DNA of 64,000 nucleotides, from the NCBI GenBank assembly GCA_016699245.1, contig CP064968.1:379331-443330 (forward strand). The letters are read 5' to 3'. The stretch comes from Candidatus Kaiserbacteria bacterium (lineage in GTDB: Bacteria > Patescibacteriota > Minisyncoccia > Phycocordibacterales > UBA918). A program made the translations under genes and the position numbers. Positions 2,933 to 57,002 of this stretch are shown in pieces. Each line of letters starts with the position of its first letter. Positions within the stretch are counted from its first letter, which is position 1. The notes beneath the pieces were generated by a model that was not told the DNA's origin, ran no database searches, and was given only the letters and a program-made list of their open reading frames with translations.

Positions 2933-2993
2933 ACCTTTTCGGGAGTGCTTTTGTATTAGCAGTGTTTTTTAGTTTTAACATAATAATTTTCTC

Positions 2994-10431: not shown

Positions 10432-10546
10432 CCCCTTCCTAAGATTCACATCTGGACAATCCGCCATCCCCTATGTCATTATAGGTGCCGGCGCGCTCCG
10501 CGCGCGTCAGGATCATACAGCACAAATCAGAACGAAGTAATAATTT

Positions 10547-10617
10547 TGGGGTATCGTCTAATGGTAGGACATCAGGTTTTGGTCCTGAGTATCGAGGTTC
10601 GAGTCCTTGTACCCCAG
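10547..10617 (+). tRNA. tRNA-Gln (anticodon TTG)
   Basis: tggggtatcg...anticodon loop ttTTGgt...T-arm cgaggttcgagtccttg...acceptor tacccca + discriminator g. 5' end identical in pattern to E. coli tRNA-Gln (UGGGGUAUCG). Confidence 0.85.
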
Positions 10618-11143
10618 CTTGTTAACAAAAAGTCCCGCAAGGGATTTTTTGTGTTACAAGCTGGAGGTAAGCACAGTGTGGGACACTGTGCGTCAAGGAC
10701 TCGAAAACCTTCTCGTGATATTATTCGAGTGAAGCGAAGAATAATATCCGAAAGGTGTACTGAATTCGTAGAATTCGAGTCCTTGTACCCCAGCTTGTTA
10801 ACAAAAAGTCCCGCAAGGGATTTTTTGTGTTACAAGCTGGAGGTAAGCACAGTGTGGGACACTGTGCGTCAAGGACTCGAAAACCTTCTCGTGATATTAT
10901 TCGAGTGAAGCGAAGAATAATATCCGAAAGGTGTACTGAATTCGTAGAATTCGAGTCCTTGTACCCCAGCTTGTTAACAAAAAGTCCCGCAAGGGATTTT
11001 TTGTGTTACAAGCTGGAGGTAAGCACAGTGTGGGACACTGTGCGTCAAGGACGAGAAGACCTTGCCTGCTATTTTGTGACGTAAGGAAACAAAATAGCGA
11101 CAAGGTGTACTGAAGTCGTAAACTTCGAGTCCTTATACCCAAC
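10598..11143 (+). repeat. tandem array of 176 bp units (three copies, third diverged), each beginning with the last 20 nt of tRNA-Gln (ttcgagtccttgtaccccag)
   Basis: Copies of the tRNA 3' end at 10598, 10774, 10950 and degenerate at 11124. Units 1 and 2 are near-identical. Unit 3 replaces the inner hairpin with a different but equally perfect hairpin. Each unit has a terminator-like hairpin aaaaagtcccgcaagggatttttt and a segment caaggactcgaa complementary to the tRNA T-arm. Confidence 0.85.
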
Positions 11144-11176
11144 TCGCCACATTTAGTAATTAGGTGTAATATTAAT

Positions 11177-11503
11177 TTGTATATGGCATCACTCAACACA
11201 CACCGAAGCGGTAGTGTTCGAAGTATCATTTTTCGAGAGAAAGATGAGTGGTTTGGTGTTGCTCTCGAATTTAACATTGTTGAGGTAGGAGATTCACCAG
11301 AGGAGGTGATGATGCTTCTTGATGAGGCAATAAAAGGGTACGTTGAGTCAGCCCAAAAGGCGAAACTTTCTGTTCGGACTTTAAATCAAAAATCTGATCC
11401 TGTATATGAAAAACTGTGGGAGTCTCAGTCAAAACCACACAGAAAAACAGGAAAGCAAATTTATCGAGTCTCCTCTCAACCAATTTCCGCACTTGTTTCA
11501 TAA
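11177..11503 (+). CDS. hicB: HicB-family antitoxin (type II TA)
   Basis: SIIFREKDEWFGVALEFNIVEVGDSPEEVMMLLDEAIKGYVES matches the HicB N-terminal (UPF0150-like) fold. Immediately precedes the hicA-like gene. Confidence 0.6.
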   Translation: MYMASLNTHRSGSVRSIIFREKDEWFGVALEFNIVEVGDSPEEVMMLLDEAIKGYVESAQKAKLSVRTLNQKSDPVYEKLWESQSKPHRKTGKQIYRVSSQPISALVS

Positions 11504-44847: not shown

Positions 44848-46216
44848 TTGCGTAGAGGTCGGTGTCGTCAACCACTGGTTCAGGCTGAACTGGTGTTTGC
44901 ACCACCTCAGGTTCTGCTACAGGCTCGGGTGTTGGTGTAGGAGCAATATCCGCCGTCACTATGGGTGCTGGGGCAACTACGGAAGGAGTGGGTGTATATG
45001 CTCTATACTCGGGCACTCTCGGTGTCACTTCTTCAGGTACGTGAGATGTTACTGGAGCAGGTGCATATGAAGAGTATGTTGGAGTTGGAATCGGAGTTGA
45101 TGCGACTACAGGCATATCTTGTGCTTCCGATACCTTTTCAAGTACTTCTTCCACTACACCGAAGTCGCCCTGCTCTGCCTGTAATTCTTCTGCATGGAGC
45201 ACCGCTTCGCTTGTCTCTGGAGTTTCGATTGAGTCATATCGAGTAAAGACATCCTCCTCATACGTAGGGGATGCGGGCATATCGGCACGCTCCAGAGGCT
45301 CTGCAATATGCGGAATTGTGGCTGCAAGCGGTGTCGCACTTTCAATGTGTGCAAGCATCTTCGTTGCGGTACCACCGTACACATTGGTTTCGGCTTTATG
45401 AATCACCTCGAGAAGCTTACGTAAATCATCCGATGCAAAATAGTCGATGGTGAGTTTGCCACCAAAGTCGGTCTTCTGAATCTGTACCCGCGTTCCAAAA
45501 GTCTCAGTGAACTGTTTTTCAATTTCAATAAGTTCCGGGTCTGAGTCCTGCCAGTTTTTCTTTCGTACTTTTTCAGTCGCAATCTTGCGAGAAATACGCT
45601 CTACCTCGCGCACCGAAAGTTTCTTTATAAGAATCTCACGGAAGACCACATCCTGCTCTGTGGGACGATCATTGAGCATGAGGAGTGTACGTGCGTGACC
45701 ATCAGAGATATCACCTTGACGAAGCGCACCAAGGATAGTCTCGGGAAGCATAAGGAGACGAATAGAGTTGGCAACATACTCGCGACTCCGTCCCACCTTT
45801 TTTGCCACCAGCATGTGGGAGAGACCAAACTGCTCTGAGAGTTGCTTAAAGGCGAGTGCTCGGTCTACCGCGTTTAAATCTTCACGTTGGAGGTTTTCAA
45901 TAATCGCCAACTCAAGTTTCATGAGTTGTGATTCTTCGCCAGTGCGAATAATCACCGGAACCTGTGAAAGTCCTGCAAGTTTAGAGGCACGCAAACGACG
46001 CTCTCCGGCAATGAGTTCATATTCAGTGGTAAATGCTCCATCTTCACCTATAATCTCGTGTCGTGTCACGACGAGGGGTTGCAGTACCCCGTACATACGA
46101 ATAGACTCCGACAGTTCTTGCAACTTTGCCTGATCAAATTCACGCCGTGGTTGAAACGGATTGGGGACAACTTTTTCTACCTCGATCCAAAAAATCGAAT
46201 TACTTTCGTACGCCAT
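44828..46216 (-). CDS. parB: ParB/Spo0J-like partition protein with about 170 aa low-complexity Pro/Thr/Val/Glu-rich C-terminal extension
   Basis: ParB box GERRLRASKLAG and HTH region SQEELAKKVGRSREYVANSIRLL-like (QLSEQFGLSHMLVAKKVGRSREYVANSIRLL); no parA neighbour. Confidence 0.75.
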   Translation of the reverse strand: MAYESNSIFWIEVEKVVPNPFQPRREFDQAKLQELSESIRMYGVLQPLVVTRHEIIGEDGAFTTEYELIAGERRLRASKLAGLSQVPVIIRTGEESQLMKLELAIIENLQREDLNAVDRALAFKQLSEQFGLSHMLVAKKVGRSREYVANSIRLLMLPETILGALRQGDISDGHARTLLMLNDRPTEQDVVFREILIKKLSVREVERISRKIATEKVRKKNWQDSDPELIEIEKQFTETFGTRVQIQKTDFGGKLTIDYFASDDLRKLLEVIHKAETNVYGGTATKMLAHIESATPLAATIPHIAEPLERADMPASPTYEEDVFTRYDSIETPETSEAVLHAEELQAEQGDFGVVEEVLEKVSEAQDMPVVASTPIPTPTYSSYAPAPVTSHVPEEVTPRVPEYRAYTPTPSVVAPAPIVTADIAPTPTPEPVAEPEVVQTPVQPEPVVDDTDLYAIKNFSL

Positions 46217-46295
46217 GGTGGATATTGTATCATATTGATTATTTCCATCACTGTGTATAATTTGATACACTCATTGGGCACCTATTAGGGCACAT

Positions 46296-46352
46296 GCCGG
46301 GATGGCGGAATTGGTATACGCGCACGACTCAAAATCGTGTATCGCAAGGCTG
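46296..46352 (+). other. partial tRNA-Leu-like 5' fragment (acceptor 5' strand, D-arm, anticodon arm CAA, start of variable arm) with no matching 3' half
   Basis: gccgggatggcggaattggtatacgcgcacgactcaaaatcgtgtatcgcaaggct is about 80% identical to the 5' part of the intact tRNA-Leu 230 bp downstream. Its acceptor stem differs (gccggga vs gctggag), so it is not a split/intron-containing gene. Confidence 0.6.
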
Positions 46353-46378
46353 AAATAATTTGGGAAATTATTTCAGGA

Positions 46379-46497
46379 GGTTGTAAGCAAAGCTTTCTGA
46401 CTGCTCGCGCTCGAAAATAGAAATAATTTTCTATTTTGCTCGCTTGTTTGTCAGTCGATAGTTTCGACTAAAAGGAGAAAGTATCATACAACCTGAA
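46379..46497 (+). repeat. structured element shared with the tRNA-Tyr locus (ggttgtaagcaaagctttctga...tcagtcgatagttt...tcatacaacctgaac)
   Basis: Outer stem ggttgta/tacaacc and mid stem ctgac/gtcag. Inner 10 bp hairpin differs in sequence from the 55661-55786 copy but is perfect in both (compensatory changes). Confidence 0.65.
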
Positions 46498-46582
46498 CCG
46501 CGCCTGTGAGGCGTTCAGAGAACGATAAGGCGGGAGGGTTAACACCTCTATCATAGAAAATTACAAATTTCAGAAATAGTGT

Positions 46583-46663
46583 GCTGGAGTGGTGGAATGG
46601 TATACACGTGCGACTCAAAATCGCATGCCGCAAGGCTTGAGGGTTCAAGTCCCTCCTCCAGCA
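46583..46663 (+). tRNA. tRNA-Leu (anticodon CAA)
   Basis: Acceptor gctggag/ctccagc, anticodon stem tgcga/tcgca with loop ctCAAaa, long variable arm, T-arm gagggttcaagtccctc. Confidence 0.85.
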
Positions 46664-46692
46664 CAGTGTTTCGGAAATCTCTTTATTAAAAC

Positions 46693-46720
46693 AAAAAACC
46701 CGTCGTGAAGCACGGGTTTT
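46693..46720. terminator. bidirectional rho-independent terminator
   Basis: aaaaaacccgtcgtgaagcacgggtttt. Confidence 0.7.
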
Positions 46721-46736
46721 CGTGTTGCGACGGGTT

Positions 46737-47345
46737 TCACCTCCTCATGAGCATATTGAACGTTTGTGCGGACTTCCGTTCCGTAAGCCACGTGCCCACT
46801 GACTCGTTGCCAACTGCAATTTCAATCTTGGTAGCCCAGTCGAAGCGGGGTTTCATGAGGCTGAACAAGTGATAGCCCAGCAATGAAATGTCAAACTTGT
46901 TCTCTTCCATATCATTAGGTTCCCCAAGGACAAAATATGCTTGATATTCACCACTCTGATATTGAGGCATGAGAAAGGTCTCCCAATGAACTGGTAAACG
47001 GACTTTTTTTGGTGTAACGAACTTATTTTCCCCTTGCACGCGATGAACCACTTCAGGGACTTCTTCAATGTCACAGCCCGAAAGGCGTCCCACCGAGACC
47101 CAATACACAGTCTTTGTTTCCATCTCAGAACCACGCGCAAAACTGTGGTTACCGTTAGAAACCCTCGTAAGAAATTCATGATACTTGAGGATGAGATGAC
47201 CACTGAATCCTTCCATGGCTGGTACTAAAACCTGCAACATCAACCTCCTTCGTAAGTCTTCCATGAGATCCTCATCACGTCCTTCTGCAGAATTCCACAC
47301 TTGTTTCAAGACAGCCACTTCTGGACTATTTCCTGTAATAATCAC
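46737..47345 (-). CDS. hypothetical protein
   Basis: 202 aa ORF with GGAGGTGA RBS upstream of a GTG start; no known domain. Confidence 0.5.
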   Translation of the reverse strand: MIITGNSPEVAVLKQVWNSAEGRDEDLMEDLRRRLMLQVLVPAMEGFSGHLILKYHEFLTRVSNGNHSFARGSEMETKTVYWVSVGRLSGCDIEEVPEVVHRVQGENKFVTPKKVRLPVHWETFLMPQYQSGEYQAYFVLGEPNDMEENKFDISLLGYHLFSLMKPRFDWATKIEIAVGNESVGTWLTERKSAQTFNMLMRR

Positions 47346-47481
47346 GATTCACCTCCACATATTTAATTTAAAGGACCCACAAGACTGCTTCCATTTGAAA
47401 CCATACGCCTTCTATGCATAAATGCAAATGTGACTTTGCATGCGCTTTGAATATATTGATAATTTGTAATATAATGGTCAA

Positions 47482-47709
47482 ATGAAAAATATTATTCAAT
47501 TTCAAATCACAGAAGAAGATGGATACTATATTGCCGAAGGTGTAAATGTCGCGATTGTGACAGACGCTCCTACGCTTGACGAACTTGCTAAAAATATTAA
47601 AGACGCCGTTGCGCTTTACTTTGAAAATGAGGACTATTCGACTCTTGGATTTGGGAGCGCTCCGTCGGTACTCGCCAACTTTGAAATTTCTGCACTGACG
47701 TATGCCTAA
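47482..47709 (+). CDS. hicB: HicB-family antitoxin
   Basis: DGYYIAEGVNVAIVTDAPTLDELAKNIKDAVALYFE. Confidence 0.7.
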   Translation: MKNIIQFQITEEDGYYIAEGVNVAIVTDAPTLDELAKNIKDAVALYFENEDYSTLGFGSAPSVLANFEISALTYA

Positions 47710-47944
47710 ACTAAAACGTCTTTCTCAAAAGGATGTTATTTCTATTCTCTTGACTCAAGGTTTTGAGTTGTCTGGACAAACGGGAAGTCATATTAAATTA
47801 AAGCGTTTTTCCGCATATGGTACAGAAGTGCTTATAGTCCCAAATCATAAGGAAATTAAACTGGGTACGCTCAAAAAAATATTCAATCAGGCGAGTAGAT
47901 ACATTCCGCAAGACATACTGAGGAAGGAATTTTATTCCGAATAA
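47702..47944 (+). CDS. hicA: HicA-family toxin
   Basis: MPKLKRLSQKDVISILLTQGFELSGQTGSHIKLKR...LIVPNHKEIKLGTLKKIFNQAS; overlaps hicB by 8 nt. Confidence 0.75.
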   Translation: MPKLKRLSQKDVISILLTQGFELSGQTGSHIKLKRFSAYGTEVLIVPNHKEIKLGTLKKIFNQASRYIPQDILRKEFYSE

Positions 47945-47951
47945 TTTAGCA

Positions 47952-48845
47952 ATGAAAAAACATAAGGCCATAGTTATCGTAGGCCCTACAGCATCGGGAA
48001 AGACTTCCCTTTCTATAGAACTTGCCAAAAAATTTGGTGGCGAGGTTGTTTCTGCTGATTCAAGGCAGGTATATACGGGACTCGATATTGGTACGGGAAA
48101 AGTGACACAGGAAGAAATGCAGGGTATTCCTCACCATCTCCTCGATGTCGCACAGCCAAACGAGGTGTACACCGCCCACGACTACGTCCGCGACGGCCGA
48201 AGAGCAATGAGTGACGTCCTTTCACGGGGAAAATTACCCATTATTGTTGGAGGTACCTTTTTCTATGTAGACGCACTTCTTGGCGATGTCTCAACACCAG
48301 AAGTTTCACCAAACCCCGAATTACGTACTGAACTCGAGAAACTCCCAACTGAAGAACTTTTTTTAAAACTTCAGAAACAGGACACAGCACGAGCCCTCAC
48401 TATTGATCAGAATAATAGAAGAAGACTCATACGAGCGATTGAAATTGCTTCGGCTATTGAAGTAGTACCGAAGACTCAGGCTGTGGAGTTGTATAATCCT
48501 CTTAAAATTGGCATTAGTATCGAAAAGGAGGAATTGGTCAAAAATATACACACACGCCTCATAGAGCGATTAGATAGGGGAATGATTGATGAGGTTGTCG
48601 CTCTCCACAAGAATGGTCTTTCGTATGAGCGAATGACCGAGCTCGGCATTGAGTATGAGTACATTGCAAAATATCTTCAAAATATCATTACAGAAAATGA
48701 GATGTGTGCCCTTATAGAAACAAAAAGTTGGCAATATGCAAAACGACAAATGACCTGGCTCAAGAGAGATGAAGATATACAATGGTTTGAAAGAGAAGAA
48801 TCTGAGAAAATCGAGGAAATGGTGAAAGCATTCCTAAATACCTAA
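47952..48845 (+). CDS. miaA: tRNA dimethylallyltransferase
   Basis: P-loop IVIVGPTASGKTSLSIELAK, SADSRQVYTGLDIGTGK, IIVGGTFFY. Confidence 0.95.
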   Translation: MKKHKAIVIVGPTASGKTSLSIELAKKFGGEVVSADSRQVYTGLDIGTGKVTQEEMQGIPHHLLDVAQPNEVYTAHDYVRDGRRAMSDVLSRGKLPIIVGGTFFYVDALLGDVSTPEVSPNPELRTELEKLPTEELFLKLQKQDTARALTIDQNNRRRLIRAIEIASAIEVVPKTQAVELYNPLKIGISIEKEELVKNIHTRLIERLDRGMIDEVVALHKNGLSYERMTELGIEYEYIAKYLQNIITENEMCALIETKSWQYAKRQMTWLKRDEDIQWFEREESEKIEEMVKAFLNT

Positions 48846-48977
48846 CCACCAACTACATCAAATTGTATCAAGGCGTCGCCTTGATACAATGGTCACTACA
48901 CCACAAGGTTTTGAAACGTTTTTGTTTTGATTCTATATCAGGTATGGGATAATAGGTGTCACTACGCATTATTTCAT

Positions 48978-50459
48978 ATGTACAGCACCTTAAAACAATA
49001 CTTTGGCTACGACGAATTTCGACCGTTGCAAAAAGATATAATTGAAAAAGTAATGGACAAACAGGACTGTGTCGTCCTTATGCCAACTGGTGGTGGGAAA
49101 TCGCTCTGTTTCCAACTACCCGCCTTGCTGCAACCGGGCACCACCATTGTCATTTCCCCACTCATCTCACTCATGAAAGATCAGGTGGATGCACTCACGG
49201 GGAACGGCATACCCGCAGCATTTATTAATAGTTCCCTCCGTCAAGATGAAATCAGCGGAGTAATAGAGAAGGTAAAAAATGGGTCACTTAAAATTTTGTA
49301 CATAACACCAGAACGACTCGCACTTCCCCATTTTGAAGCACTCTTACACACACTGCCAGTGAGCCTATTCGCTATTGATGAAGCGCACTGTATCTCTGAG
49401 TGGGGCCACGACTTTAGACCAGACTATCGTAACCTCAAATCACTTCGACAAAAATTTCCTTCTATTCCCATCATTGCTCTTACCGCTACTGCAACGGAAA
49501 AAGTCCGTGCAGATATCGTGAGCCAACTTGCGCTCCCCTCACCGCACATTTTCACTTCAAGCTTTAATCGGCAAAACTTGAGTTATGAAGTGTTACCAAA
49601 AAAAGATTCCTTCTCCACTATTCTTTCTCTTGTGTCTCTATATAAGGGTGAAAGCATTATCATCTACTGCTTCTCTCGAAAGGACACTGAAACGGTTGCA
49701 GAGAAATTAAATAAGCAAGGATATAAAGCAAGTACGTATCACGCAGGTCTGAGTGCTGATACCCGCAGAGACAACCAGGAGCGCTTTATTCGTGACGATA
49801 TCCAAATCATGGTGGCTACCATTGCCTTTGGCATGGGAATAGACAAACCCGATGTACGATTAGTCATTCATCATAGTCTCCCCAAATCAATAGAAGGATA
49901 CTATCAAGAGACAGGTCGCGCAGGGCGAGACGGCCTCCCTGCACGTTGCGTACTCTTGTTTTCTCTTGCTGATAAATTCAAACATGACTTTTTTAACAAC
50001 AGAATCGCAGACCCAGTGGAAAAACAACAGGTACAGTACAATCTCGAACAATCAGTACAATATGGAAAACTAACGGGATGCCGTCGAAAGTTTTTGCTTA
50101 AATATTTTAATGAAGAGTACACAAAGCAAAACTGCGGAAACTGTGACTACTGTATTTCTCCCACTCCACTCATAATTCAAAAAACTAAGAAGGTGGTGCC
50201 GAAGTCAGTTGTGTCAGTAGTTAAAAATGCGAGTTATGACGTCTCATTATTTGAAGCACTACGTCAAGTGAGAACAAGCGAAGCAGCACGACTTCGCGTT
50301 CCTCCGTACATTGTCTTTGGCGACAAAGCACTTCATGAAATGGCTCTTCATAAACCAAAAACGAATGAAGCGTTCCTCAGCATCAGTGGTGTGGGTGAGA
50401 AGAAGTTGTCTCAGTTTGGAGAGATTTTTATGAATGCGATTCGGGGGTATGAGGGGTGA
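48978..50459 (+). CDS. recQ: ATP-dependent DNA helicase RecQ (helicase + RQC + HRDC)
   Basis: Motif I MPTGGGKSLCFQLPA, DEAH-box FAIDEAHCISEWGHDFRPDY, HRDC-like LFEALRQVRTSEAARLRVPPYIVFGDKALHEMA; ATG at 48978 preferred. Confidence 0.9.
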   Translation: MYSTLKQYFGYDEFRPLQKDIIEKVMDKQDCVVLMPTGGGKSLCFQLPALLQPGTTIVISPLISLMKDQVDALTGNGIPAAFINSSLRQDEISGVIEKVKNGSLKILYITPERLALPHFEALLHTLPVSLFAIDEAHCISEWGHDFRPDYRNLKSLRQKFPSIPIIALTATATEKVRADIVSQLALPSPHIFTSSFNRQNLSYEVLPKKDSFSTILSLVSLYKGESIIIYCFSRKDTETVAEKLNKQGYKASTYHAGLSADTRRDNQERFIRDDIQIMVATIAFGMGIDKPDVRLVIHHSLPKSIEGYYQETGRAGRDGLPARCVLLFSLADKFKHDFFNNRIADPVEKQQVQYNLEQSVQYGKLTGCRRKFLLKYFNEEYTKQNCGNCDYCISPTPLIIQKTKKVVPKSVVSVVKNASYDVSLFEALRQVRTSEAARLRVPPYIVFGDKALHEMALHKPKTNEAFLSISGVGEKKLSQFGEIFMNAIRGYEG

Positions 50460-50480
50460 GGGATGTAGTGAGGTGAGGAA

Positions 50481-50963
50481 TTGGTACACAAAAGAACAGA
50501 CACTTTAATTAATAAAAATTTGTGGTATAGTTGTGGAAATAAGATGAATTATCTCTTACCTCAGATTGAAGGAGTGATAGCTAAAATAAGTAAGTCTAGT
50601 GCATTGTATCCTTTATTGATTGGGCTTGTTTTTGCCGTCGCAGTTGTATGCATTGTTTTTACTCTTTCGGAAAATTCATGGTTAAGATTTTTTTCACTAC
50701 TGTTTCCAACGATAGTGCTTATCATGATTGTGCGGAGTTATGAACATTTTGCCAAGAATAATCCAGACATGCTCAGGTCAGAAACTCATGTTATACAAAA
50801 ACAAGCTTTGTCTCTTATTGGAGATGAAACACATACCCTTGGTACAAAAGCGACACACGTTTTGGCCATTTTGAATCCAAACAAGCCTATCGTAGATGAG
50901 GATTTACTTGAATTATCCCCAATTTCAGAAGTTCAATTGAGTGAACCCATAAAATTAGTATGA
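50481..50963 (+). CDS. membrane hypothetical protein
   Basis: Two TM helices; no motif. Confidence 0.4.
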   Translation: MVHKRTDTLINKNLWYSCGNKMNYLLPQIEGVIAKISKSSALYPLLIGLVFAVAVVCIVFTLSENSWLRFFSLLFPTIVLIMIVRSYEHFAKNNPDMLRSETHVIQKQALSLIGDETHTLGTKATHVLAILNPNKPIVDEDLLELSPISEVQLSEPIKLV

Positions 50964-51235
50964 ATGTCTATCTTATTGCCACAAACAGTAACCCCCCCTT
51001 CAATCTGACAAAGTTCCATAATTTTGTTACGATTAATTTATACCCCACACATGTTTCAGCATGGTGGCACTATCTCAGTGGGTCAGTATATATGGTAAAG
51101 ACGAATTTAAACGTAAACCAATTAAATCAATTAGTAAAACAGCACATGGGTGCTTTACATTACATGGTTATAAAAGTTGATCCGTTAGATGCTCAGGGAT
51201 GGTTACCTAAAGAAGGATGGGATTGGCTAAAGTAA
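50960..51235 (+). CDS. hypothetical protein, translationally coupled to the previous ORF (atga overlap)
   Basis: 91 aa ORF. Confidence 0.35.
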   Translation: MNVYLIATNSNPPFNLTKFHNFVTINLYPTHVSAWWHYLSGSVYMVKTNLNVNQLNQLVKQHMGALHYMVIKVDPLDAQGWLPKEGWDWLK

Positions 51236-51253
51236 ATCTTCTCAAATGTTATT

Positions 51254-51562
51254 TTAGACATTCGAAAGTATTTTTGATATTGTAAACCCAAAAAATAAAC
51301 TTGACGTTAGGGCTATAATTATACCTGCAAAAAATAATCCTATCCCAAAACCAAAACCGAATTTGATTCCAGAACCGACTCCAAGAGATACGTTATTGTA
51401 TTCCTCAGGTATGGTGTACACACTCTCTCCCTTTGCTTGAGCATTTTGCAAGTCTGCAACCACTTCTTTCTCCACCTTCTTGAGATTTTTAACAAAGTAA
51501 TCAATCAGTGCTACGACAATTAGCACTACTGCGGTTAGTACGAGTATTATAAAGGAATCCAT
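51254..51562 (-). CDS. small membrane protein with Gly-rich C-terminal TM region
   Basis: Two TM helices; GIKFGFGFGIGLFFAG. Confidence 0.4.
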   Translation of the reverse strand: MDSFIILVLTAVVLIVVALIDYFVKNLKKVEKEVVADLQNAQAKGESVYTIPEEYNNVSLGVGSGIKFGFGFGIGLFFAGIIIALTSSLFFGFTISKILSNV

Positions 51563-51699
51563 ATACGCTAACTATAGTATGTAGAACTGTAGTTAGCAAC
51601 TTATTGCCATGTATGTAATGAGTTCAAGAATTCTAATACAATTTAACAAAAGAGTGCATGAAGAACTCCTCAAACGCGTTATATCACTGGAGCATCTTA

Positions 51700-52530
51700 T
51701 TTACATGGACCTATTCTCTGTAAATGCTCGTTTTGCGGTCACGAGTTGCTAATTATTTTAGTTCGCTTCGCTTCTAAAATAATAAGCACCTTCATAAATT
51801 CTTTTATGTAAAAGAATTTATGAAGGGCTCAGAAAATATAATCGCTACGCTTATTATTTTCTGGCCACCCCAGCTCGCTGTTCATCACTTTTTGAAAGTG
51901 ACTCACAACGCTCGTGAAATAGTTTCCCAAACTATTTCACCCCGTCGAGCACGTACGTGACGCAGGTCACCTCTTTGCGGTCACGATAAAATTATCTCCC
52001 AGAAAATTTTATCTAAGTCTTTTCAAAGAAAAGTCTAAGCACTCTCGACCCCGACTCACTCGCCTAGCGGCATCGTTCCGTCTCCCGCAAAGGACCGCAA
52101 GCAAAGCAGTTTGCTTGCTACACAAAAGAACAGACACTTTCGTGTCTGTTCTTTTGTGTTCCTTTGCGGGCCCACGAGGGCTCGAAACTTACAGTTTCAG
52201 TACCCCTTTAGGATACTTTTCTTCATTTCATTCGAAAAGATATCTCTAAAGGGCTTCAAATCCTGATCGCACAGTGCCCCGCACTGTGCTTGGGCCCGCC
52301 CAGATATACAAAAAGCTGTCTTATGACAGCTTTTTGTATATCTGGGCGGGCCCACGAGGATTTGAACATTACATGTTCAGTACCCGTTGTGGCTATTTTA
52401 TTTCTTCGCTCTGCGAATCATAAAATAGCACGCAACGGCTTCGAGCCCGTGCTCCTGTTTGCATTCGCAAACAGATGCGCTTCGTGGGCCCGCCATATTA
52501 AAACACCTCATCAAATGAGGTGTTTTAATA
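51700..52530. repeat. non-coding hairpin array: series of perfect 8-30 bp-arm palindromes, including three units carrying copies of the tRNA-Trp 3' end (gcgggcccacgagg...) in both orientations
   Basis: Perfect palindromes at about 51793-51830, 51886-51910, 52105-52160, 52293-52356 (arms include tgggcccgcc) and 52484-52544 (arms = tRNA-Trp 3' end plus terminator). Direct copies of the tRNA 3' segment at 52166-52186 and 52346-52366. Confidence 0.8.
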
Positions 52531-52604
52531 TGGCGGGCCCACGAGGGCTCGAACCTCGGTCGCTGGTTTTGGAGACCAGAATTCTACCACTGAAATATAG
52601 GCCC
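52531..52604 (-). tRNA. tRNA-Trp (anticodon CCA), CCA end encoded
   Basis: gggcctatatttcagtggtagaattctggtctCCAaaaccagcgaccgaggttcgagccctcgtgggcccgcca. Confidence 0.85.
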
Positions 52605-52658
52605 AGGACTCCTATAGTACGGGAAATACGCATTGGGGTCAACGATTATATGAAGAAT

Positions 52659-53114
52659 TTAATAACCTTGGCTAGCCTTCCTTTTTATTATTATCTCCCG
52701 TGCAACTAACTCAGGAACACCAACAGAGACAAGATTTTCTACACTCCAAACGACCGCGGCTTCTGGGATAACTGTCCAACCTTTTTCTGCCGTATACACA
52801 AAAACTGATTCTCCTGCAGAATATCCATCATCCCATTCTTGTAAGGCATAATTTGAAACAATGATGGTATATCCAAGAGTGATTGGGAGTGGTGTCACGA
52901 CTTGCTTTTCAAACGCACTTTTTATCGCTACACGCTTCGTTTGTTCTTCTTGATTGATTGGCGTTTCTGTTGTTCCTGTAGTAGATGATGCTACGGGGAA
53001 AGTTGAGACACTACCATTTGGGGGTTTTGGGAGTTCGTTTGGTGACAGGACCCATAAAGAATAACCTAATCCAATAACTCCGAGAAGCCCAACTAGTATG
53101 ATTATCTTATTCAT
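52659..53114 (-). CDS. secreted hypothetical protein
   Basis: Signal peptide MNKIIILVGLLGVIGLGYSLWVLS. Confidence 0.45.
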   Translation of the reverse strand: MNKIIILVGLLGVIGLGYSLWVLSPNELPKPPNGSVSTFPVASSTTGTTETPINQEEQTKRVAIKSAFEKQVVTPLPITLGYTIIVSNYALQEWDDGYSAGESVFVYTAEKGWTVIPEAAVVWSVENLVSVGVPELVAREIIIKRKASQGY

Positions 53115-53126
53115 AGATTGAAGTTA

Positions 53127-54005
53127 TTAAATTTTATTTATGCTATAGATTCTTCCAGGTCCCGCTTTATAGGATGGGCTAAAACTTGAATCACTTACCC
53201 AAGAAAATGTTTTATTCGATGAACTGTTTGAAATTGTTTTTGTACATCCTGCATTCATGCAAATGCCCGTATGAGATCGTGAACCGTCAGTCACAATAAC
53301 AATATCCCCAGCTTTCGCAGCTGATTGATCAACCAATGTTCCCCTACCTCCTGCAAGTGCTTGCTCCATTGACTTCACACTATTACCATCAATGGGACTT
53401 ATGCCTGCATCTTCTAGTACTTTGTTTACAGCCCATGCGCATGCAAGTGAGCCACCACCAGGACCTCCTGCCGTTGAAAAACCTTGTGCCCCGAGTGCAG
53501 CAGCAGCAATTGATCCTGCACTTCCTCCACCCGGATTCGTCATACCACCCGGACCTGTATTTGTCGTAGCACCACCACTTGGTCCTGTCATCGTGGCGGT
53601 CATCGTTGGATTATCTACACACTGTACTGTACCCCACACCTCAATACCTTTGCCATCACTCATGACGGTCATAAGTATCGTGTTCACAATAAGCCATGCA
53701 CCGAGGAGGATGAAGAAACCTATGATAGAGTTCGACATCATTTCTTTTCCTTCTGAGACTTTTCCAGTGTTCCCTGCGGACATCACCATTTTCATGCCAC
53801 CAAAGGCGAACATGAGGGCAACGATAGTTGCAGATGCGCCTATAAACCAAGTCATCAATCCCTGCCCCATAGCAACAAAGTCACAGACGCGACACATTGG
53901 TTCGGGAGGACCACCACCACAGGGGACTAGGCCTGCAGCGTACGTGACAGAGGCGGTGAGAAGGAAGAGGCTTGTGATGAATAGTATGCGTTGGTTGGTG
54001 GTCAT
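53127..54005 (-). CDS. secreted two-TM pilin-like N-terminal module fused to a C-terminal CHAP/NlpC-P60-like cysteine peptidase/amidase domain
   Basis: Signal peptide plus two hydrophobic helices (VirB2/TrbC-like topology). C-terminus has nucleophile Cys in SLACAWAVN and downstream GDIVIV...SHTGIC His. N-terminal 160 aa about 97% identical to the 54605 paralog. Confidence 0.55.
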   Translation of the reverse strand: MTTNQRILFITSLFLLTASVTYAAGLVPCGGGPPEPMCRVCDFVAMGQGLMTWFIGASATIVALMFAFGGMKMVMSAGNTGKVSEGKEMMSNSIIGFFILLGAWLIVNTILMTVMSDGKGIEVWGTVQCVDNPTMTATMTGPSGGATTNTGPGGMTNPGGGSAGSIAAAALGAQGFSTAGGPGGGSLACAWAVNKVLEDAGISPIDGNSVKSMEQALAGGRGTLVDQSAAKAGDIVIVTDGSRSHTGICMNAGCTKTISNSSSNKTFSWVSDSSFSPSYKAGPGRIYSINKI

Positions 54006-54021
54006 AAAATAAAATTAGACA

Positions 54022-54597
54022 TTATAATGGAACACTACCCGGACAAAAACTAAATCGTAAATCCTGACTTGTGTAAAACTGATTAATAAAATACGGAACG
54101 CTCACCATATAGTCAATCTGGCACAACTGCTCCTCACTGAGTCCAAGATGGGTAAGCAAATATTGCTCAGCACCAGTGCGGGCTTTGCTTATTGGTTCTG
54201 AAGTAAGTGAAATATTGAAGTACTGTGTTTGTGCAACGTACATAATGGTAAAAGGAGGGTATGTTTCTACGAAAGAGCCATCAAGTGGAAAGTGTTCACC
54301 TAAGTGGTAATATCCCTCATTTTGAGGGTCTGCCACGGTGTCTGGGTCACTCATAAAATTACGCACCGAGAGAGTAGCACCCGATGTTGTATTGAGTGTG
54401 AGCAACGTATTACTACTACCCGTATTTGTAGAGGACGTGCCATCTGGATTTTGTGAGGCGTTTGTTCCGCTACTCGGAAACTCTGTTCCTTGATTTTCAG
54501 ACGGAGTATCCACTGCATTATTTGAAATGTAAAACCAAAAACCAAACCCCCCAAGGAGTAGTAATACAATGACGATAATGATGCTTTTATTATTCAT
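54022..54597 (-). CDS. membrane-anchored/secreted hypothetical protein
   Basis: N-terminal TM IIIVIVLLLLGGFGFWFYI then Ser/Thr/Asn-rich region; start chosen at MNNKSIII. Confidence 0.45.
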   Translation of the reverse strand: MNNKSIIIVIVLLLLGGFGFWFYISNNAVDTPSENQGTEFPSSGTNASQNPDGTSSTNTGSSNTLLTLNTTSGATLSVRNFMSDPDTVADPQNEGYYHLGEHFPLDGSFVETYPPFTIMYVAQTQYFNISLTSEPISKARTGAEQYLLTHLGLSEEQLCQIDYMVSVPYFINQFYTSQDLRFSFCPGSVPL

Positions 54598-54604
54598 ATA
54601 CAAT

Positions 54605-55441
54605 TTATGGTCCATACTTTGTAATACACGCTTGAGCTTTTGCATTACAATTGGCACAGGTCCAACTACTATATCCGCTCTGTGACACCAGCTTTTTTGC
54701 TACCTCAGCGTTGCACGATGCATTGGTACAAGACGAAAAACTACTGCAACTCGTGCCTTTTGCAGCACTTTCCCAAGTTGATTTAATGACTTGAAATGTG
54801 CCACATGCACTACCGCTTTTATTTTGCGCTGTAGGATTACCAGAACTCTCTGTCATCGCGATACACGACATGACATTTGCTTGTGAAGGAGTAAAGCCTG
54901 CGGCTGTAAGCGCATTCACACTGCACGCCGGATTAAGGCTCCCACACTGTATACCACTTCCTCCCCCCGGATTCGTCATACCACCCGGACCTGTATTTGT
55001 CGTAGCACCACCACTTGGCCCCGTCATCGTGGCGGTCATCGTAGGATTATCAACACACTGTACCGTACCCCACACCTCAACACCTTTACCATCACTCATG
55101 ACGGTCATAAGTATCGTATTCACAATAAGCCATGCACCGAGGAGGATGAAGAAACCTATGATAGAGTTCGACATCATTTCTTTTCCTTCTGAGACTTTTC
55201 CAGTGTTCCCTGCGGACATCACCATCTTCATACCCCCAAAGGCGAACATGAGGGCAACGATACTTGCAGACGCACCAATAAACCAAGTCATCAATCCCTG
55301 CCCCATAGCAACAAAGTCACAGACGCGACACATTGATTCGGGAGGACCACCACCACAGGGGACAAGCCCTGCAGCGTACGTGACAGAGGCGGTGAGAAGG
55401 AAGAGTGCTGTGGTGAATAGTATGCGGTGGTTGGTGGTCAT
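54605..55441 (-). CDS. paralog of 53127: same pilin-like N-terminal module fused to a C-terminal lytic-transglycosylase (SLT)-like domain
   Basis: CIAMTESSGNPTAQNKSGSACGTFQV resembles the SLT catalytic E-S...GLMQ block; several Cys pairs; N-terminal 160 aa near-identical to 53127 gene. Confidence 0.55.
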   Translation of the reverse strand: MTTNHRILFTTALFLLTASVTYAAGLVPCGGGPPESMCRVCDFVAMGQGLMTWFIGASASIVALMFAFGGMKMVMSAGNTGKVSEGKEMMSNSIIGFFILLGAWLIVNTILMTVMSDGKGVEVWGTVQCVDNPTMTATMTGPSGGATTNTGPGGMTNPGGGSGIQCGSLNPACSVNALTAAGFTPSQANVMSCIAMTESSGNPTAQNKSGSACGTFQVIKSTWESAAKGTSCSSFSSCTNASCNAEVAKKLVSQSGYSSWTCANCNAKAQACITKYGP

Positions 55442-55544
55442 GCTCCCTATATCGTACCATAGTACATTCAGGTACTTTTACTTATAAGTGAATTATGGTA
55501 CTTTAGAGCCTGTCCTCCTTACGGAGACAAATAATTACATATAT

Positions 55545-55561
55545 GCGTCGGTGGTGGAGTG
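55545..55561 (+). other. duplicate of the first 17-20 nt of tRNA-Tyr (atgcgtcggtggtggagtg) about 310 bp upstream of the intact gene
   Basis: Identical to 55854-55872 including 2 nt of 5' flank. Confidence 0.6.
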
Positions 55562-55660
55562 AGAAATGGGTGAGAAGCGAGTTTACGCAGCTTCGCAAGA
55601 CCTTGAGCAGTTTCTGCGAAAGGTGTACAGCAACTGTAAGTCGGGACCCATTTCGCAAGA

Positions 55661-55786
55661 GGTTGTAAGCAAAAGCTTTCTGATTGCACTCGTGTCATGT
55701 ATGAAAGTGAACTTTCATACTGTACACTCGTTTATCAGTCGATAGTTTACGAGTGAAGCGAGATAAACTATCATACAACCTGAACA
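55661..55786 (+). repeat. second copy of the structured element seen upstream of tRNA-Leu; contains the conserved-loop hairpin gatagtttacGAGTGAAGCGAGataaactatc
   Basis: Shares ggttgtaagcaaa(a)gctttctga..tcagtcgatagttt..tcatacaacctgaac with 46379-46497. Hairpin loop matches the loop of the tRNA-Gln repeat hairpin (ttattcGAGTGAAGCGAAGaataa). Confidence 0.65.
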
Positions 55787-55855
55787 GTCCCTGTAAAGGA
55801 GTCAATCACAACAGACTATTAAGTTATAGAGGTCTGAAAAGAACAATACAATCAT

Positions 55856-55938
55856 GCGTCGGTGGTGGAGTGGTCAATCACAACAGACTGTAAATCTGTC
55901 GACTTCGGTCTTCGCTGGTTCGAATCCAGCCCGGCGCA
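55856..55938 (+). tRNA. tRNA-Tyr (anticodon GTA) with long variable arm
   Basis: Acceptor gcgtcgg/ccggcgc (one G-U), anticodon stem acaga/tctgt with loop ctGTAaa, variable arm gacttcggtc, T-arm gctggttcgaatccagc. Confidence 0.85.
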
Positions 55939-55973
55939 CAAACCAAACATACATAACACGTAAGCGTTACGTA

Positions 55974-57002
55974 TCAAATTCCAATACTTGCTATTCTGTA
56001 TTCGATTAATTCATTTTCTTCTCTCCCATCATCAGCGTATGGTTTGTATACACCGTATTTTAATGAATTGCCATCCACCCACTCCATATTAGGATAGGCC
56101 CCACCATATCCAAACTCGCTTTGATGGAGACTCTCATTGGTATTTATTTTTACCACTTGAATCACTGCTCCAAATTCATAATCGTATATCTCGATAGTTG
56201 TTTCATCTGCTAACCGCGCAACTAATTTATTTGACGGAGACAATCTGTCACCACCATACGGATCAAAACCGAAATCAACGTCTTCAAAAGCCAAACTATT
56301 TCCATCAAATCGCAAAACTGAGCAACAATTTGAACCACCAAATAGTCCCTCAGATGTAAAATAAACCGAATTTGTGTCCACAGAGGAAAATAGTTTTACA
56401 ATATATCGACTGCGTCCATAATTAATATTTCGGAACTCAACCGAAAGATTTTTCTTAATATTAAGTTTATTATTCTCAAAGATATAACAAATGACAACTA
56501 CATCCTCAATTAAACACTCATGCTCAGACATAATCGAACCATTTGATAAAACTGTTTGAGTTAGTAGGTCAGTATCTATAAGAATTTCAGTAGATATACC
56601 ATCCTTGAAATTAGTGGGTAATTTTGAAACATAACTGACCGTTTCACTAGATTTCTCGTCTGCAGTTGATGTCTCCGGTGATCTTTGTTCCTCATTAATC
56701 TTCTCATCTTCTGTGAAAGTCAAAATGTCCTCAGTTATTATCGGATCACCTATAGGCGGAGTTCCTGATGAGATAGATTGGTCAGGAATTGGCATATTTC
56801 CAAAGTCAACGAGATCAGGTCTCCATATAGAATCATCCTCTTGCTGCACAATATCCTCTGTCTCCTTAATTATTAACGAATCAATATACAGATAAGTAGC
56901 TGCAATTACAGACACACCAATAATCGATAGACCGATGAGTGCAAAAATTCGAACAGAATTAAAAGAACCATTCTTGGTTATCTCTATGTTTTGTTGATCC
57001 AT
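55974..57002 (-). CDS. membrane-anchored hypothetical protein with acidic linker
   Basis: TM helix IFALIGLSIIGVSVIAATYLY; start at MDQQNIEI preferred because a terminator abuts the upstream Met. Confidence 0.45.
   Translation of the reverse strand: MDQQNIEITKNGSFNSVRIFALIGLSIIGVSVIAATYLYIDSLIIKETEDIVQQEDDSIWRPDLVDFGNMPIPDQSISSGTPPIGDPIITEDILTFTEDEKINEEQRSPETSTADEKSSETVSYVSKLPTNFKDGISTEILIDTDLLTQTVLSNGSIMSEHECLIEDVVVICYIFENNKLNIKKNLSVEFRNINYGRSRYIVKLFSSVDTNSVYFTSEGLFGGSNCCSVLRFDGNSLAFEDVDFGFDPYGGDRLSPSNKLVARLADETTIEIYDYEFGAVIQVVKINTNESLHQSEFGYGGAYPNMEWVDGNSLKYGVYKPYADDGREENELIEYRIASIGI

Follow-up and report, generated by a model that had tools for sequence, protein, structure and literature searches.

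Classical islands that target tRNA genes leave partial tRNA repeats behind. The Escherichia coli tyrT operon possesses 178-bp repeats and the RtT RNA (Rfam RF00391), with units that each terminate in a repeated tRNA 3′ end. Extra RNA domains can also be closed by tRNA stems, as in the engineered ‘tRNA scaffold’ that serves RNA expression. The group I introns described in tRNA genes of the phylum to which the present organism belongs possess a group I core, are self-splicing, and interrupt the sole functional gene at position 35/36, in the anticodon loop. The tRNA-like domain of tmRNA, YrlA (PMC4201824), and mascRNA likewise carry additional RNA domains closed by tRNA stems.

The locus compared here with these systems lies in a 64-kb stretch of Candidatus Kaiserbacteria DNA, the whole of which is referred to as the window; features are on the forward strand unless noted, and loci of other CPR genomes carry L numbers. 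The functional tRNA-Tyr(GTA) gene was placed at 55856–55939 by ARAGORN and at 55856–55938 by Rfam (RF00005, 59.5 bits), and is 100% identical to the tRNA-Tyr of L029, L155, and L158. An earlier note on this DNA had claimed an exact 19-nt duplicate of the 5′ end of this gene, and this is borne out: atgcgtcggtggtggagtg occurs at 55543–55561 and at 55854–55872, with a start-to-start distance of 311. By arithmetic, ~0.008 exact 19-mer pairs are expected per 64 kb, and the repeat is therefore not due to chance. As the tRNA starts at 55856, the repeat comprises ‘AT’ followed by tRNA nucleotides 1–17 (55545–55561 in the upstream copy); it stretches 7 nt further upstream if three mismatches are allowed (26 nt, 88%). 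A second direct repeat was overlooked in the note: GTCAATCACAACAGACT, corresponding to tRNA nucleotides 18–34, is present at 55801–55817 and again, within the intact gene, at 55873–55889. The upstream copy is thus tRNA-Tyr nucleotides 1–34, into whose D loop, between nucleotides 17 and 18, a structured insert of 239 nt is placed; a spacer of 36 nt separates this copy from the intact gene. The insert is therefore housed within the D loop of an additional, truncated tRNA and is not simply bracketed by one duplicated segment.

Copy 1 of the first repeat holds the 5′ strands of the acceptor stem and of the D stem (GTGG) plus the D-loop letters AGTG, while the segment at 55801–55817 supplies what remains of the D loop, the 3′ strand of the D stem (TCAC), and the 5′ strand of the anticodon stem. 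The pseudo-tRNA-Tyr stops at nucleotide 34, without the anticodon, T arm, and acceptor 3′ strand, and its D stem (GTGG at 55554–55557 with TCAC at 55806–55809) closes the whole insert. The pseudo anticodon-stem strand and the spacer together form a CAGAC-15 nt-GUCUG hairpin at 55812–55836, identified from the sequence and the centroid fold; an equivalent, longer pairing is present in L005, L016, and L155. The spacer itself (55818–55853) contains a promoter-like ..GTTATAGAGG..AACAATACAATCAT arrangement and resembles the spacers of L157, L155, and L016 by eye, and those of L016 and L005 weakly by alignment score (z ~2). Further upstream, in the interval that separates the tRNA-Tyr locus from the divergent pilin-SLT gene, homology identified a conserved intergenic block, ACTTTTACTTAT..GTGAATTATGGTACTTTAGAGCCTGT (55474–55513), that corresponds to the sequence immediately preceding the lone tRNA-Tyr gene in L106 (z = 10 by local alignment) and is also present in L155, L157, L158, and L159; this block is the ancestral upstream region and probably the promoter. 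The two upstream regions in the window, before the pseudo copy and before the intact gene, are not similar to each other (z = −1). A simple local tandem duplication judged within the window alone was therefore rejected, and a tandem-duplication origin rests on the relatives.

Within the insert, two folded domains and a hairpin follow one another. RNAfold assigned the P0 domain to 55562–55657, in which the stem AAAUGGGU/ACCCAUUU (55564–55571 with 55646–55653) encloses a nested module at ~55572–55645 made up of a GAGAAGCGAG-loop hairpin, ACCUU..AAGGU, GUACAG, and a further hairpin whose loop reads CUGUAAG. This nested form is common to the window and L013; the P0 stem of L155 closes merely a 3-nt loop (AGAAATGG-AAT-GGGACCCATTTC). 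The four-way-junction core at 55658–55785, delineated using a covariance model, RNAalifold, pair counts, and RNAfold, possesses the helices P1 (55660–55666 with 55775–55781), P2 (55667–55670 with 55675–55678), P3 (base 55680–55684 with 55734–55738, plus a long extension), and P4 (55741–55748 with 55765–55772, loop CGAGUGAAGCGAG), with a CUGAAC linker at 55780–55785 after P4. The hairpin that the earlier note had placed at 55741–55772 is the P4 of this core, and the element that it had described as shared with the tRNA-Leu locus is real: the covariance model matched 55658–55807 with 148.6 bits, the corresponding Leu segment is 46376–46520, and RNAfold returned the same four-way junction there. 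The P5 hairpin (AGUCC-CUGUAAA-GGAGU, 55786–55802) was read from the sequence and bears compensatory changes in 5/5 pairs. Its 7-nt loop, CUGUAAA (55791–55797), is identical to the tRNA-Tyr anticodon loop, and a GUA-containing loop is present in every family member irrespective of the neighboring tRNA.

To what extent this fold is conserved was assessed with 13 homologues from CPR metagenome-assembled genomes (MAGs), using RNAalifold and pair counts. In the consensus fold, 95.9% of cells are paired, compared with 34–45% when the partners are slid; compensatory changes are present in 11 pairs, compared with 2–6 in the slid controls, and none of 500 shuffles reached the observed values. The U-A to U-G changes among the homologues fit only the tRNA strand. 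This comparison shows the core fold to be under selection on the tRNA strand, as judged from substitution patterns. The pattern used to collect homologues fixed the P1 5′ strand and P2, which makes covariation impossible there and underestimates the breadth of the family; divergent members, such as the D-loop variant of L016, were met by chance only, and nine of the 22 genome-scan matches were false positives in coding sequence. Family members occupy other tRNA contexts. In L013, an element 84% identical over 214 nt interrupts a pseudo-tRNA-Ser at its D loop, with the D-stem halves of that tRNA on either side; in L019, a core copy with 94% identity resides in the T loop of a pseudo-tRNA-Gln; and in L003 the core stands apart, with no ARAGORN-detected tRNA in the 3956 nt of that sequence. 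A 42-codon open reading frame running from the ATG of the repeat to a stop codon within the core was discarded as a candidate, as the part in common with the homologous leader of L013 is read there in a different frame; no reading frame is conserved across the window and L013 leaders. Searches of the literature furnished no description of these elements, the nearest papers being those on group I introns in Patescibacteria and on tRNA gene fragments, and the tRNA-flanking structured RNA modules apparently constitute an undescribed family in these bacteria.

The resemblance of the Tyr locus to integrative elements at tRNA genes lies in a direct repeat of a tRNA segment that bounds extra DNA by an intact tRNA, in filled and empty sites among relatives, and in fragment polarity on the outer side of the gene. 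However, the extra DNA here is 311 bp long, non-coding, and devoid of an integrase; the 5′ end of the tRNA is duplicated rather than the 3′ end; the insert resides within a truncated tRNA copy rather than between two instances of the same core; and in relatives the repeat reaches into the promoter. MITE and IS-type elements were rejected as identities, as no inverted repeat is present at the insert ends and the D-loop flanks (..GGAGTG to the left, GTCAATC.. to the right), compared between filled and empty sites, show no duplication. Like the tyrT/RtT units, which are structured, non-coding, tRNA-linked, ~176–180 nt long, each ending in a tRNA 3′-end copy and presumably released by tRNA-processing enzymes, the window contains trailers downstream of tRNA-Gln and tRNA-Trp that are very similar in design. 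The Tyr and Leu elements, in contrast, are upstream with 5′ tRNA fragments, 3′ tandem units being found at the Gln and Trp trailers only, and the modules here are common to many tRNA species and across genomes. The RF00391 covariance model did not match 45800–56400 or 10400–11400 at E up to 10.

The group I introns are also structured RNA insertions in tRNA genes, whereas the Tyr insert occupies the D loop of a copy that is truncated, non-functional, and devoid of a 3′ exon; the group I catalytic core model RF00028 yielded no match at E up to 10. Akin to the tRNA-like devices, the trailers possess an acceptor/T-arm-like closing helix and the leader insert is closed by the D stem, but the Tyr leader lacks both a T arm and the 3′ strand of an acceptor stem and is thus an incomplete tRNA mimic. 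ARAGORN detected no tmRNA, and Rfam returned no match to tmRNA or any other family, among which the bacterial Y RNA models should be included. At the gathering threshold, Rfam identified only the four tRNAs in the whole window; relaxing to E up to 10 on 45800–56400 and 10400–11400 added a weak tRNA match on a pseudo-tRNA-Leu and miRNA/snoRNA noise on palindromes. Group I intron, ribozyme class, tmRNA, and T-box identities were rejected for want of an Rfam or ARAGORN match.

The insert is only one of several states of the same site. The earlier note had proposed looking for the empty site in related genomes, and such sites exist: counting the window, five states are observed at one syntenic site. 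The syntenic tRNA-Tyr has no leader in L106 and L159; L157 possesses a pseudo-half (nucleotides 1–16 plus 20–34) with an empty D loop and no insert; L155/L156 carry a mini element; L158 and L016 carry another leader; and the window carries the full element. Twelve metagenome loci that share the exact 5′ half of the window tRNA-Tyr could be assessed, and six of them have no leader (a 13th, L123, with only 45 nt of upstream sequence, is outside this count). The closest relatives, L155/L156, L016, and L005, share the tandem pseudo-tRNA and tRNA arrangement with the window, and a duplication of promoter-proximal sequence is found in L155 (exact over 35 nt), in L016 and L005, and at the tRNA-Trp of L106. 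The tandem together with this duplication points to an old, inherited tandem copy; as reconstructed from these loci, the pseudo-tRNA and tRNA tandem is shown to be inherited within the clade and absent in more distant syntenic relatives. The modules differ from one relative to another and are seated in one of three loops (D, P0, or P1). These differences, together with their recurrence in a pseudo-tRNA-Ser, show on comparative grounds that the modules turn over and move between tRNA contexts. The pseudo-tRNA evolves in concert with the functional gene: T11..A24 is found in both copies in the window and C11..G24 in both copies in L005. The identity of pseudo-tRNA pieces to the functional tRNA of their own genome, including this lineage-specific D-stem pair, indicates gene conversion or selection.

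Flanking elements are present at all four tRNA genes of the window (4/4). A sister locus at 46296–46582, defined by the covariance model and folds, precedes an intact tRNA-Leu (46583–46664) and is composed, in order, of nucleotides 1–56 of a pseudo-tRNA-Leu(CAA) (46296–46351), a P0 hairpin with a GGG loop (46352–46374), the four-way-junction core plus P5 (46376–46520), and a degenerate T-arm-like hairpin. The weak RF00005 match on this pseudo-tRNA spans 46296–46379 (21.7 bits), and the copy is 89% identical to the functional tRNA-Leu of L046 and 80% identical to its own neighbor. In L106, an intact tRNA-Leu is nested inside P1 of an element, and that element is inside an outer tRNA-Leu copy. 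Downstream of tRNA-Gln, three tandem ~176-nt trailer units (10619–11146; fold z-score −8.9) each contain a terminator hairpin, a strand complementary to the 3′ end of the tRNA, a P0 hairpin whose loop reads UGGGA, a GAGUGAAGCGA-loop hairpin, GGUGUACUGAA, and a GUA-loop hairpin, along with a repeated T loop and the 3′ strands of the T stem and acceptor stem. On the reverse strand, repeats and folds delineate two tandem trailer units after tRNA-Trp (52166–52530) that are built like the Gln units, with two perfect 30-nt palindromes that include the tRNA 3′ end. Both sets of trailers form the acceptor/T-arm-like closing helix. This polarity extends beyond the window. Among 240 CPR tRNAs, 5′ ends recur upstream in 21 and downstream in 1, and 3′ ends recur downstream in 17 and upstream in 0 (binomial p about 1e-5 each), demonstrating, as repeat counts on these CPR contigs, 5′ fragments upstream or 3′ fragments downstream at about one in six tRNA genes.

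The earlier note had taken the locus as the border of a hydrolase island; this is not an island, as the block of pilin-SLT, a ~185-aa ORF, pilin, and tRNA-Trp is conserved in L155, L157, and L159. Synteny could not be judged from the downstream 360-aa ORF, an orphan. A Pfam scan of the window ORFs (most of those of at least 110 aa) detected neither an integrase nor a reverse transcriptase. The one HUH (RAYT-like) ORF of the window, at 454–1170, is flanked by GTCGAC-TTACGAT-GTCGAC palindromes; a RAYT/REP link was considered and rejected, as these REP palindromes are unrelated to the tRNA-flanking modules.

Taken together, a model for the Tyr locus emerges that we consider probable: the truncated tandem tRNA-Tyr copy would be an old pseudo-tRNA scaffold that carries loop-inserted RNA modules which turn over. 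The pseudo copy keeps nucleotides 1–34, with its D stem closing an insert of nestable modules, these being the P0 hairpin domain, the four-way-junction core, the CUGAAC linker, and the hairpin that mimics the tRNA-Tyr anticodon loop. We infer that the leader is transcribed and released by RNase P as a stable RNA, which may be functional. The ancestral tRNA promoter would drive transcription of the cassette, yielding a leader of ~310 nt or else a separate transcript, and RNase P cleavage at tRNA +1 would free the tRNA and leave a stable D-stem-closed RNA. The minimum free energy fold of the leader and tRNA pairs leader nucleotides 1–7 with the tRNA 3′ acceptor strand, a pairing that, if real, would compete with tRNA folding. 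At the DNA level, gain, loss, and exchange of modules could proceed by recombination through tRNA-derived and module-derived repeats; in a naturally competent organism (DprA is encoded in the window), conserved tRNA sequence would serve as portable homology, and a dedicated recombinase would be unnecessary. Insertion into loops that is site-specific or guided by single-stranded DNA hairpins may be a further route.

A rather unlikely alternative is that the modules belong to a new kind of non-coding mobile element, one able to invade hairpin loops, be they D, T, or its own, via folded RNA and reverse flow or via single-stranded DNA hairpins, with the pseudo-tRNA as a landing pad tolerated beside the functional copy. 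Three pairs of filled and empty loops are in line with such invasion, namely the D loop (L157 relative to L155 and the window), the P0 loop (L155 relative to the window and L013), and the P1 loop (L155 relative to the window), as are nested insertions such as that of the L106 tRNA-Leu, the presence of one subfamily at Tyr, Ser, and Gln in different genomes, and units in tandem arrays. Yet the D-loop borders bear neither target-site duplications nor terminal inverted repeats, there is no associated protein (the only HUH gene of the window has its own palindromes), and ordinary recombination between repeated modules could yield the same patterns. Searches of virus collections yielded no copies either: three scans of IMG/VR viral contigs returned chance matches only, as checked with the covariance model, and blastn of the leader against 50,697 phage records found no match, and a phage origin was accordingly discarded.

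The earlier note had read the repeat as the product of integration into the tRNA 5′ region, whereby a small element would have recombined with the 5′ part of tRNA-Tyr, leaving the 19-nt repeat as attL and attR, and could still excise. We find this improbable, even though parts of the reading stand: the repeat is real and bounds 292 nt, partial tRNA repeats are to be expected as with classical islands, insert-free sites exist in syntenic relatives, and the element occurs in other tRNA contexts. A scar of one integration is contradicted by the insert continuing with tRNA nucleotides 18–34, contiguous with the 1–17 on its left, such that the left copy is an interrupted tRNA and no bare att core. 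Moreover, the left fragment of the relatives is between 10 and 18 nt long, their repeat takes in promoter sequence outside the tRNA, the arrangement is inherited as a tandem common to several related genomes, and no integrase is present in the non-coding 311 bp or in the scanned window ORFs.

Still less probable is a purely cis-acting leader, that is, a decayed tandem duplicate that aids the expression or processing of tRNA-Tyr, with no mobility and no separate RNA. The conservation in the clade of a tandem with duplicated promoter-proximal sequence would suit this role, as would the lack of a detectable terminator between the leader and the tRNA in a simple scan, although simple promoter and terminator scans were uninformative. 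It is at odds with the many relatives that have an identical tRNA-Tyr and no leader, with leader content that is not conserved between relatives even as each version is well folded, and with the L003 core that stands apart from any ARAGORN-detected tRNA in 3956 nt of sequence. A chance repeat or an assembly artefact can be dismissed: mis-assembly of MAGs can create repeats, but the chance expectation is negligible, the architecture recurs in independent assemblies from different samples (L005, L013, L016, L155, L156, L157), and the source contig is 1.05 Mb long.

The RNA of the Tyr leader may serve the cell, for instance as a tRNA mimic that binds tRNA-handling proteins, or may be a selfish passenger of strongly expressed tRNA genes. 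More broadly, and tentatively, we propose that Kaiserbacteria-like CPR harbor a so far undescribed class of nestable, protein-less structured-RNA modules that colonize tRNA and pseudo-tRNA loops, move between tRNA species and genomes, and perhaps drive tRNA gene replacement; they would represent either a new type of non-coding mobile element, with tRNA sequence or structure as both target and vehicle, or a new tRNA-mimicking RNA family with a cellular role. L106 nests an intact tRNA-Leu within an element that itself lies in an older tRNA-Leu copy, and the pseudo-tRNA-Leu of the window resembles the tRNA of another lineage. CPR genomes are about 1 Mb in size, and yet all four tRNA genes of the window carry 0.3–0.5 kb of folded, non-coding, tRNA-derived flanking RNA, which amounts to about 2% of the window sequence. 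Such loci give partial tRNA matches and would mislead tRNA annotation as well as island finders that read the fragments as att sites. If selfish, the modules would exemplify protein-free spread that exploits the most conserved genes of the cell and is able to overwrite them. If functional, the conserved four-way junction and anticodon-loop mimic should bind something, and the modules would amount to a novel class of RNAs, abundant and linked to tRNAs, within a major section of bacterial diversity that is uncultured.

The earlier note had reported an exact 19-nt duplicate of the 5′ end of tRNA-Tyr, and the repeat, atgcgtcggtggtggagtg, indeed occurs at 55543-55561 and 55854-55872; by our own arithmetic, about 0.008 exact 19-mer pairs are expected by chance in 64 kb. 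The tRNA-Tyr(GTA) gene was placed at 55856-55939 by ARAGORN and at 55856-55938 by Rfam; with its start at 55856, the repeat therefore comprises AT and tRNA nucleotides 1-17. A second repeat overlooked by that note, GTCAATCACAACAGACT (tRNA nucleotides 18-34), lies at 55801-55817 and, within the gene, at 55873-55889, and thus the upstream copy is tRNA-Tyr nucleotides 1-34, split in the D loop between nucleotides 17 and 18. The 239 nt interrupting the D loop of this pseudo-tRNA are bordered by the D-stem halves GTGG and TCAC; after the pseudo copy comes a spacer of 36 nt, then the intact gene. Pseudo and functional copies carry the same lineage-specific D-stem pair, which is T11..A24 in the window and C11..G24 in L005 (one of the CPR genome and metagenome loci compared here); this correspondence indicates gene conversion or selection. 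We read the 19-nt repeat as the start of a pseudo-tRNA scaffold and not as an att or target-duplication scar.

RNAfold predicted the same four-way junction within this insert (at 55658-55785) and in the sister element upstream of tRNA-Leu, in agreement with the earlier claim of an element common to both loci. In the junction, P1 pairs GGUUGUA with UACAACC, P2 is a small invariant hairpin (AAGC-AAA(A)-GCUU), P3 is a long hairpin with the base CUGAY/RUCAG, and P4 (55741-55772, loop CGAGUGAAGCGAG) is the conserved-loop hairpin already noticed in the intervening DNA. Downstream of P4 follow CUGAAC and hairpin P5, whose 7-nt loop, CUGUAAA, is identical to the anticodon loop of tRNA-Tyr; every member of the family has a loop containing GUA, irrespective of the adjacent tRNA. 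On the 5′ side lies P0 (AAAUGGGU/ACCCAUUU), which in the window encloses a further nested module. Rfam gave no match for the insert, even at E up to 10.

A genome scan queried with part of the core, using a pattern that fixed the P1 5′ strand and P2, recovered 15 loci that are true homologues and nine further matches that are chance occurrences in coding sequence. Thirteen of the homologues derive from Kaiserbacteria, Paceibacterota and MAGs labelled ‘Saccharibacteria’, and two from probably mis-binned contigs. Across 13 sequences, 95.9% of cells in the consensus structure were paired vs 34-45% with the partners slid, and 11 pairs carried compensatory changes vs 2-6 in the slid controls, this covariation evidence pertaining to helices other than those of the P1 5′ strand and P2, both fixed by the search pattern; the observed pairing and compensation values were attained in 0 of 500 shuffles. 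The U-A to U-G changes are compatible with the tRNA strand only. A covariance model detected both window copies (148.6 and 142.3 bits) and none in viral contigs or in a set of 120 metagenome loci that bear tRNA-Tyr; the distribution of the full core is therefore patchy.

Among relatives including the window, five states were observed at the syntenic site, which lies between the divergent pilin-SLT gene and tRNA-Tyr and carries a conserved marker block (ACTTTTACTTA..GTGAATTRTGGTA.TTTATAGCCTGT, window 55474-55513). The empty site that the earlier note had proposed seeking in related genomes was found in two forms. L106 and L159 possess no leader, that is, no tRNA-derived structured sequence upstream of the intact tRNA; L106 is syntenic with the window across ParB, tRNA-Leu, MiaA (61% identical), tRNA-Trp, pilin and tRNA-Tyr. 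In L157, the same truncated copy as in the window has an empty D loop, with nucleotides 1-16 fused straight to 20-34 ahead of a window-like spacer and the intact gene. L155 and L156, whose tRNA is 100% identical to that of the window, hold a ‘mini’ element in the D loop (AGAAATGG-AAT-GGGACCCATTTC, P1 enclosing one hairpin, CUGAAC and P5); their pseudo copy runs on through an anticodon-loop insert, and 18 nt of their exact 35-nt direct repeat are promoter-proximal. L158 and L016 carry another leader (nucleotides 1-10, a hairpin, then hairpins with GAGYGAANGCGA-type loops), and the window carries the full element. In L005, the D loop of the pseudo copy is uninterrupted and the anticodon-loop insert is present. 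The tRNA-Tyr 5′ half is identical to that of the window in 13 metagenome loci; the upstream region of L123 is too short to judge, and a 5′-duplicate leader of some sort is present in six of the other 12 and absent from six. It follows that the tandem pseudo-tRNA has been inherited in a clade and is absent outside it, and from this site comparison its contents change via gain, loss or replacement of loop modules.

Other arrangements were seen beside tRNA-Tyr. Four loci (L029, L060, L118, L136) share a second homologous leader family, built from tRNA nucleotides 1-18, a hairpin, two GAGCGAAUGCGA-loop hairpins and a Shine-Dalgarno-like AAAGGAGGACAAUCA abutting the tRNA. L045 (~2850-3120) has a 73-aa GIY-YIG nuclease ORF (PF01541, E 5.8e-12) between the intact tRNA-Tyr and a pseudo-tRNA-Tyr whose D loop holds a small hairpin, and L157 (2857-3873) has an IS110-family transposase gene (DEDD_Tnp_IS110 and Transposase_20) ~0.5 kb past the tRNA-Tyr trailer, the downstream counterpart of a leader.

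The same modules occupy other tRNA contexts. The insert of L013, 84% identical over 214 nt to the whole window insert, is found upstream of intact tRNA-Ser in a pseudo-tRNA-Ser(GGA), whose D loop it occupies between the D-stem halves of that tRNA. A core copy 94% identical to that of the window lies in the T loop of a pseudo-tRNA-Gln (L019), pseudo-tRNA-Arg T loops hold further copies (L004, L020), and tandem copies adjoin tRNA-Leu(TAG) in L012 and L005. At L106 8230-8490 (− strand), the two P1 strands of an element enclose an intact tRNA-Leu(CAA), and the element itself occupies the T loop of an outer tRNA-Leu copy that is otherwise complete; the anticodon stem of this outer copy appears to be recombined from two tRNA-Leu variants. 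The window pseudo-tRNA-Leu (46296-46351) shares 89% identity with the functional tRNA-Leu of L046 vs 80% with its own neighbor, which may point to tRNA gene replacement or a horizontal origin; its anticodon stem also differs by compensatory changes from that of the adjacent functional tRNA-Leu. The main rival to module exchange within inherited pseudo-tRNAs would make the modules themselves non-coding mobile elements that invade loops; we consider it unlikely.

Flanking fragments show a general polarity. Of 240 tRNAs (from 135 CPR sequences) that had 200 nt or more of sequence on each side, 21 had a repeat of their first 14 nt (at most 1 mismatch) in the 600 nt upstream and one had it downstream; the last 16 nt were repeated downstream in 17 and upstream in none (binomial p about 1e-5 each). 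The downstream trailers are built alike. A terminator hairpin and the tRNA 3′ end in reverse complement are followed by a P0 hairpin (GGG loop), variable modules, GGUACUGAA and a GUA hairpin; the T loop is then copied directly, together with the 3′ strands of the T stem and the acceptor stem, which allows the two ends of a trailer to pair as an acceptor/T-like helix. All four window tRNAs have flanking elements. The tRNA-Gln trailers (10619-11146, + strand) are three tandem ~176-nt structured units, each of which starts with the tRNA 3′ end in complement and closes with a 21-27-nt copy of that end; they fold with a z-score of about −9, have no Rfam match and are analogous to the E. coli tyrT/RtT repeats. 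The two tRNA-Trp units (52166-52530, − strand) come with two perfect 30-nt palindromes (52482-52544 and 52291-52354), in which the tRNA 3′ end is fused to a terminator hairpin and to the complement of that same end. Past them, 154 nt (52029-52181, − strand) are 95% identical to L016 1701-1854, where the flanking genes are far more diverged; this stretch, with a terminator hairpin, a hairpin GCAAGCAAACUGCUUUGCUUGC (motif also in L004 and L046) and GGGGUCGAGAG, may be another conserved RNA module.

The window encodes housekeeping proteins (TopA, RelA/SpoT, ParB, MiaA, RecQ, ClpB, DnaX, SerRS, Dus, GlmS, DprA) and pilin-hydrolase fusions typical of CPR bacteria. Classical integration at tRNA-Tyr, to which the earlier note had attributed the repeat, is highly improbable: contiguous tRNA sequence borders the insert, the left fragment differs in length between relatives (10 to 18 nt), promoter sequence is duplicated too in relatives, the arrangement is common to related genomes, and no recombinase or integrase was found among the scanned window ORFs (most ORFs of at least 110 aa). 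No reverse transcriptase was found among these ORFs either. Nor does tRNA-Tyr form the right border of a hydrolase island, as had been proposed; the block of pilin-SLT, a ~185-aa ORF, pilin and tRNA-Trp is conserved in L155, L157 and L159, and by this comparison is core synteny with no island bounded by the tRNA-Tyr repeat. Elsewhere in the window, a 300-nt direct repeat of 96% identity (53519-53818 and 54955-55254) lies inside the paralogous T4SS-pilin fusion genes pilin-CHAP (53127-54005) and pilin-SLT (54605-55441), which suggests recent gene conversion between their pilin N-terminal parts. A HicB-like/HicA toxin-antitoxin pair (47482-47944) separates tRNA-Leu from MiaA and is missing from syntenic L106. 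At 404-1252, a RAYT-like HUH transposase ORF (454-1170; Y1_Tnp E 6e-6; NF047646 E 1.3e-9, below cutoff) has on both sides perfect 25-26-nt REP-like palindromes (GTCGAC-TTACGAT-GTCGAC type) that bear no relation to the tRNA-flanking modules.

Literature searches found no description of the tRNA-flanking elements. E. coli possesses the tyrT 178-bp repeats and RtT RNA, and these, like the tRNA-fragment repeats left by integrative elements, are among the nearest known systems but do not share the defining features tested here. The same applies to the group I introns that occur in Patescibacteria tRNAs (PMC13011429). We rate the window elements as a variant among tRNA-linked, tRNA-mimicking repeat RNAs; there is a substantial, if less than even, chance that they constitute something more distinct.

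Taken together, a model of exchangeable modules within pseudo-tRNA scaffolds emerges. The cassette would be transcribed from the conserved upstream region, and RNase P, cleaving at the 5′ end of the tRNA, would free a folded ~310-nt RNA from it. In the predicted minimum free energy fold of leader and tRNA, the first 7 nt of the leader pair with the tRNA 3′ acceptor strand, a possible conflict with tRNA folding. Modules would be gained, lost and exchanged by recombination through tRNA-derived and module-derived repeats, which natural competence (DprA) may aid.
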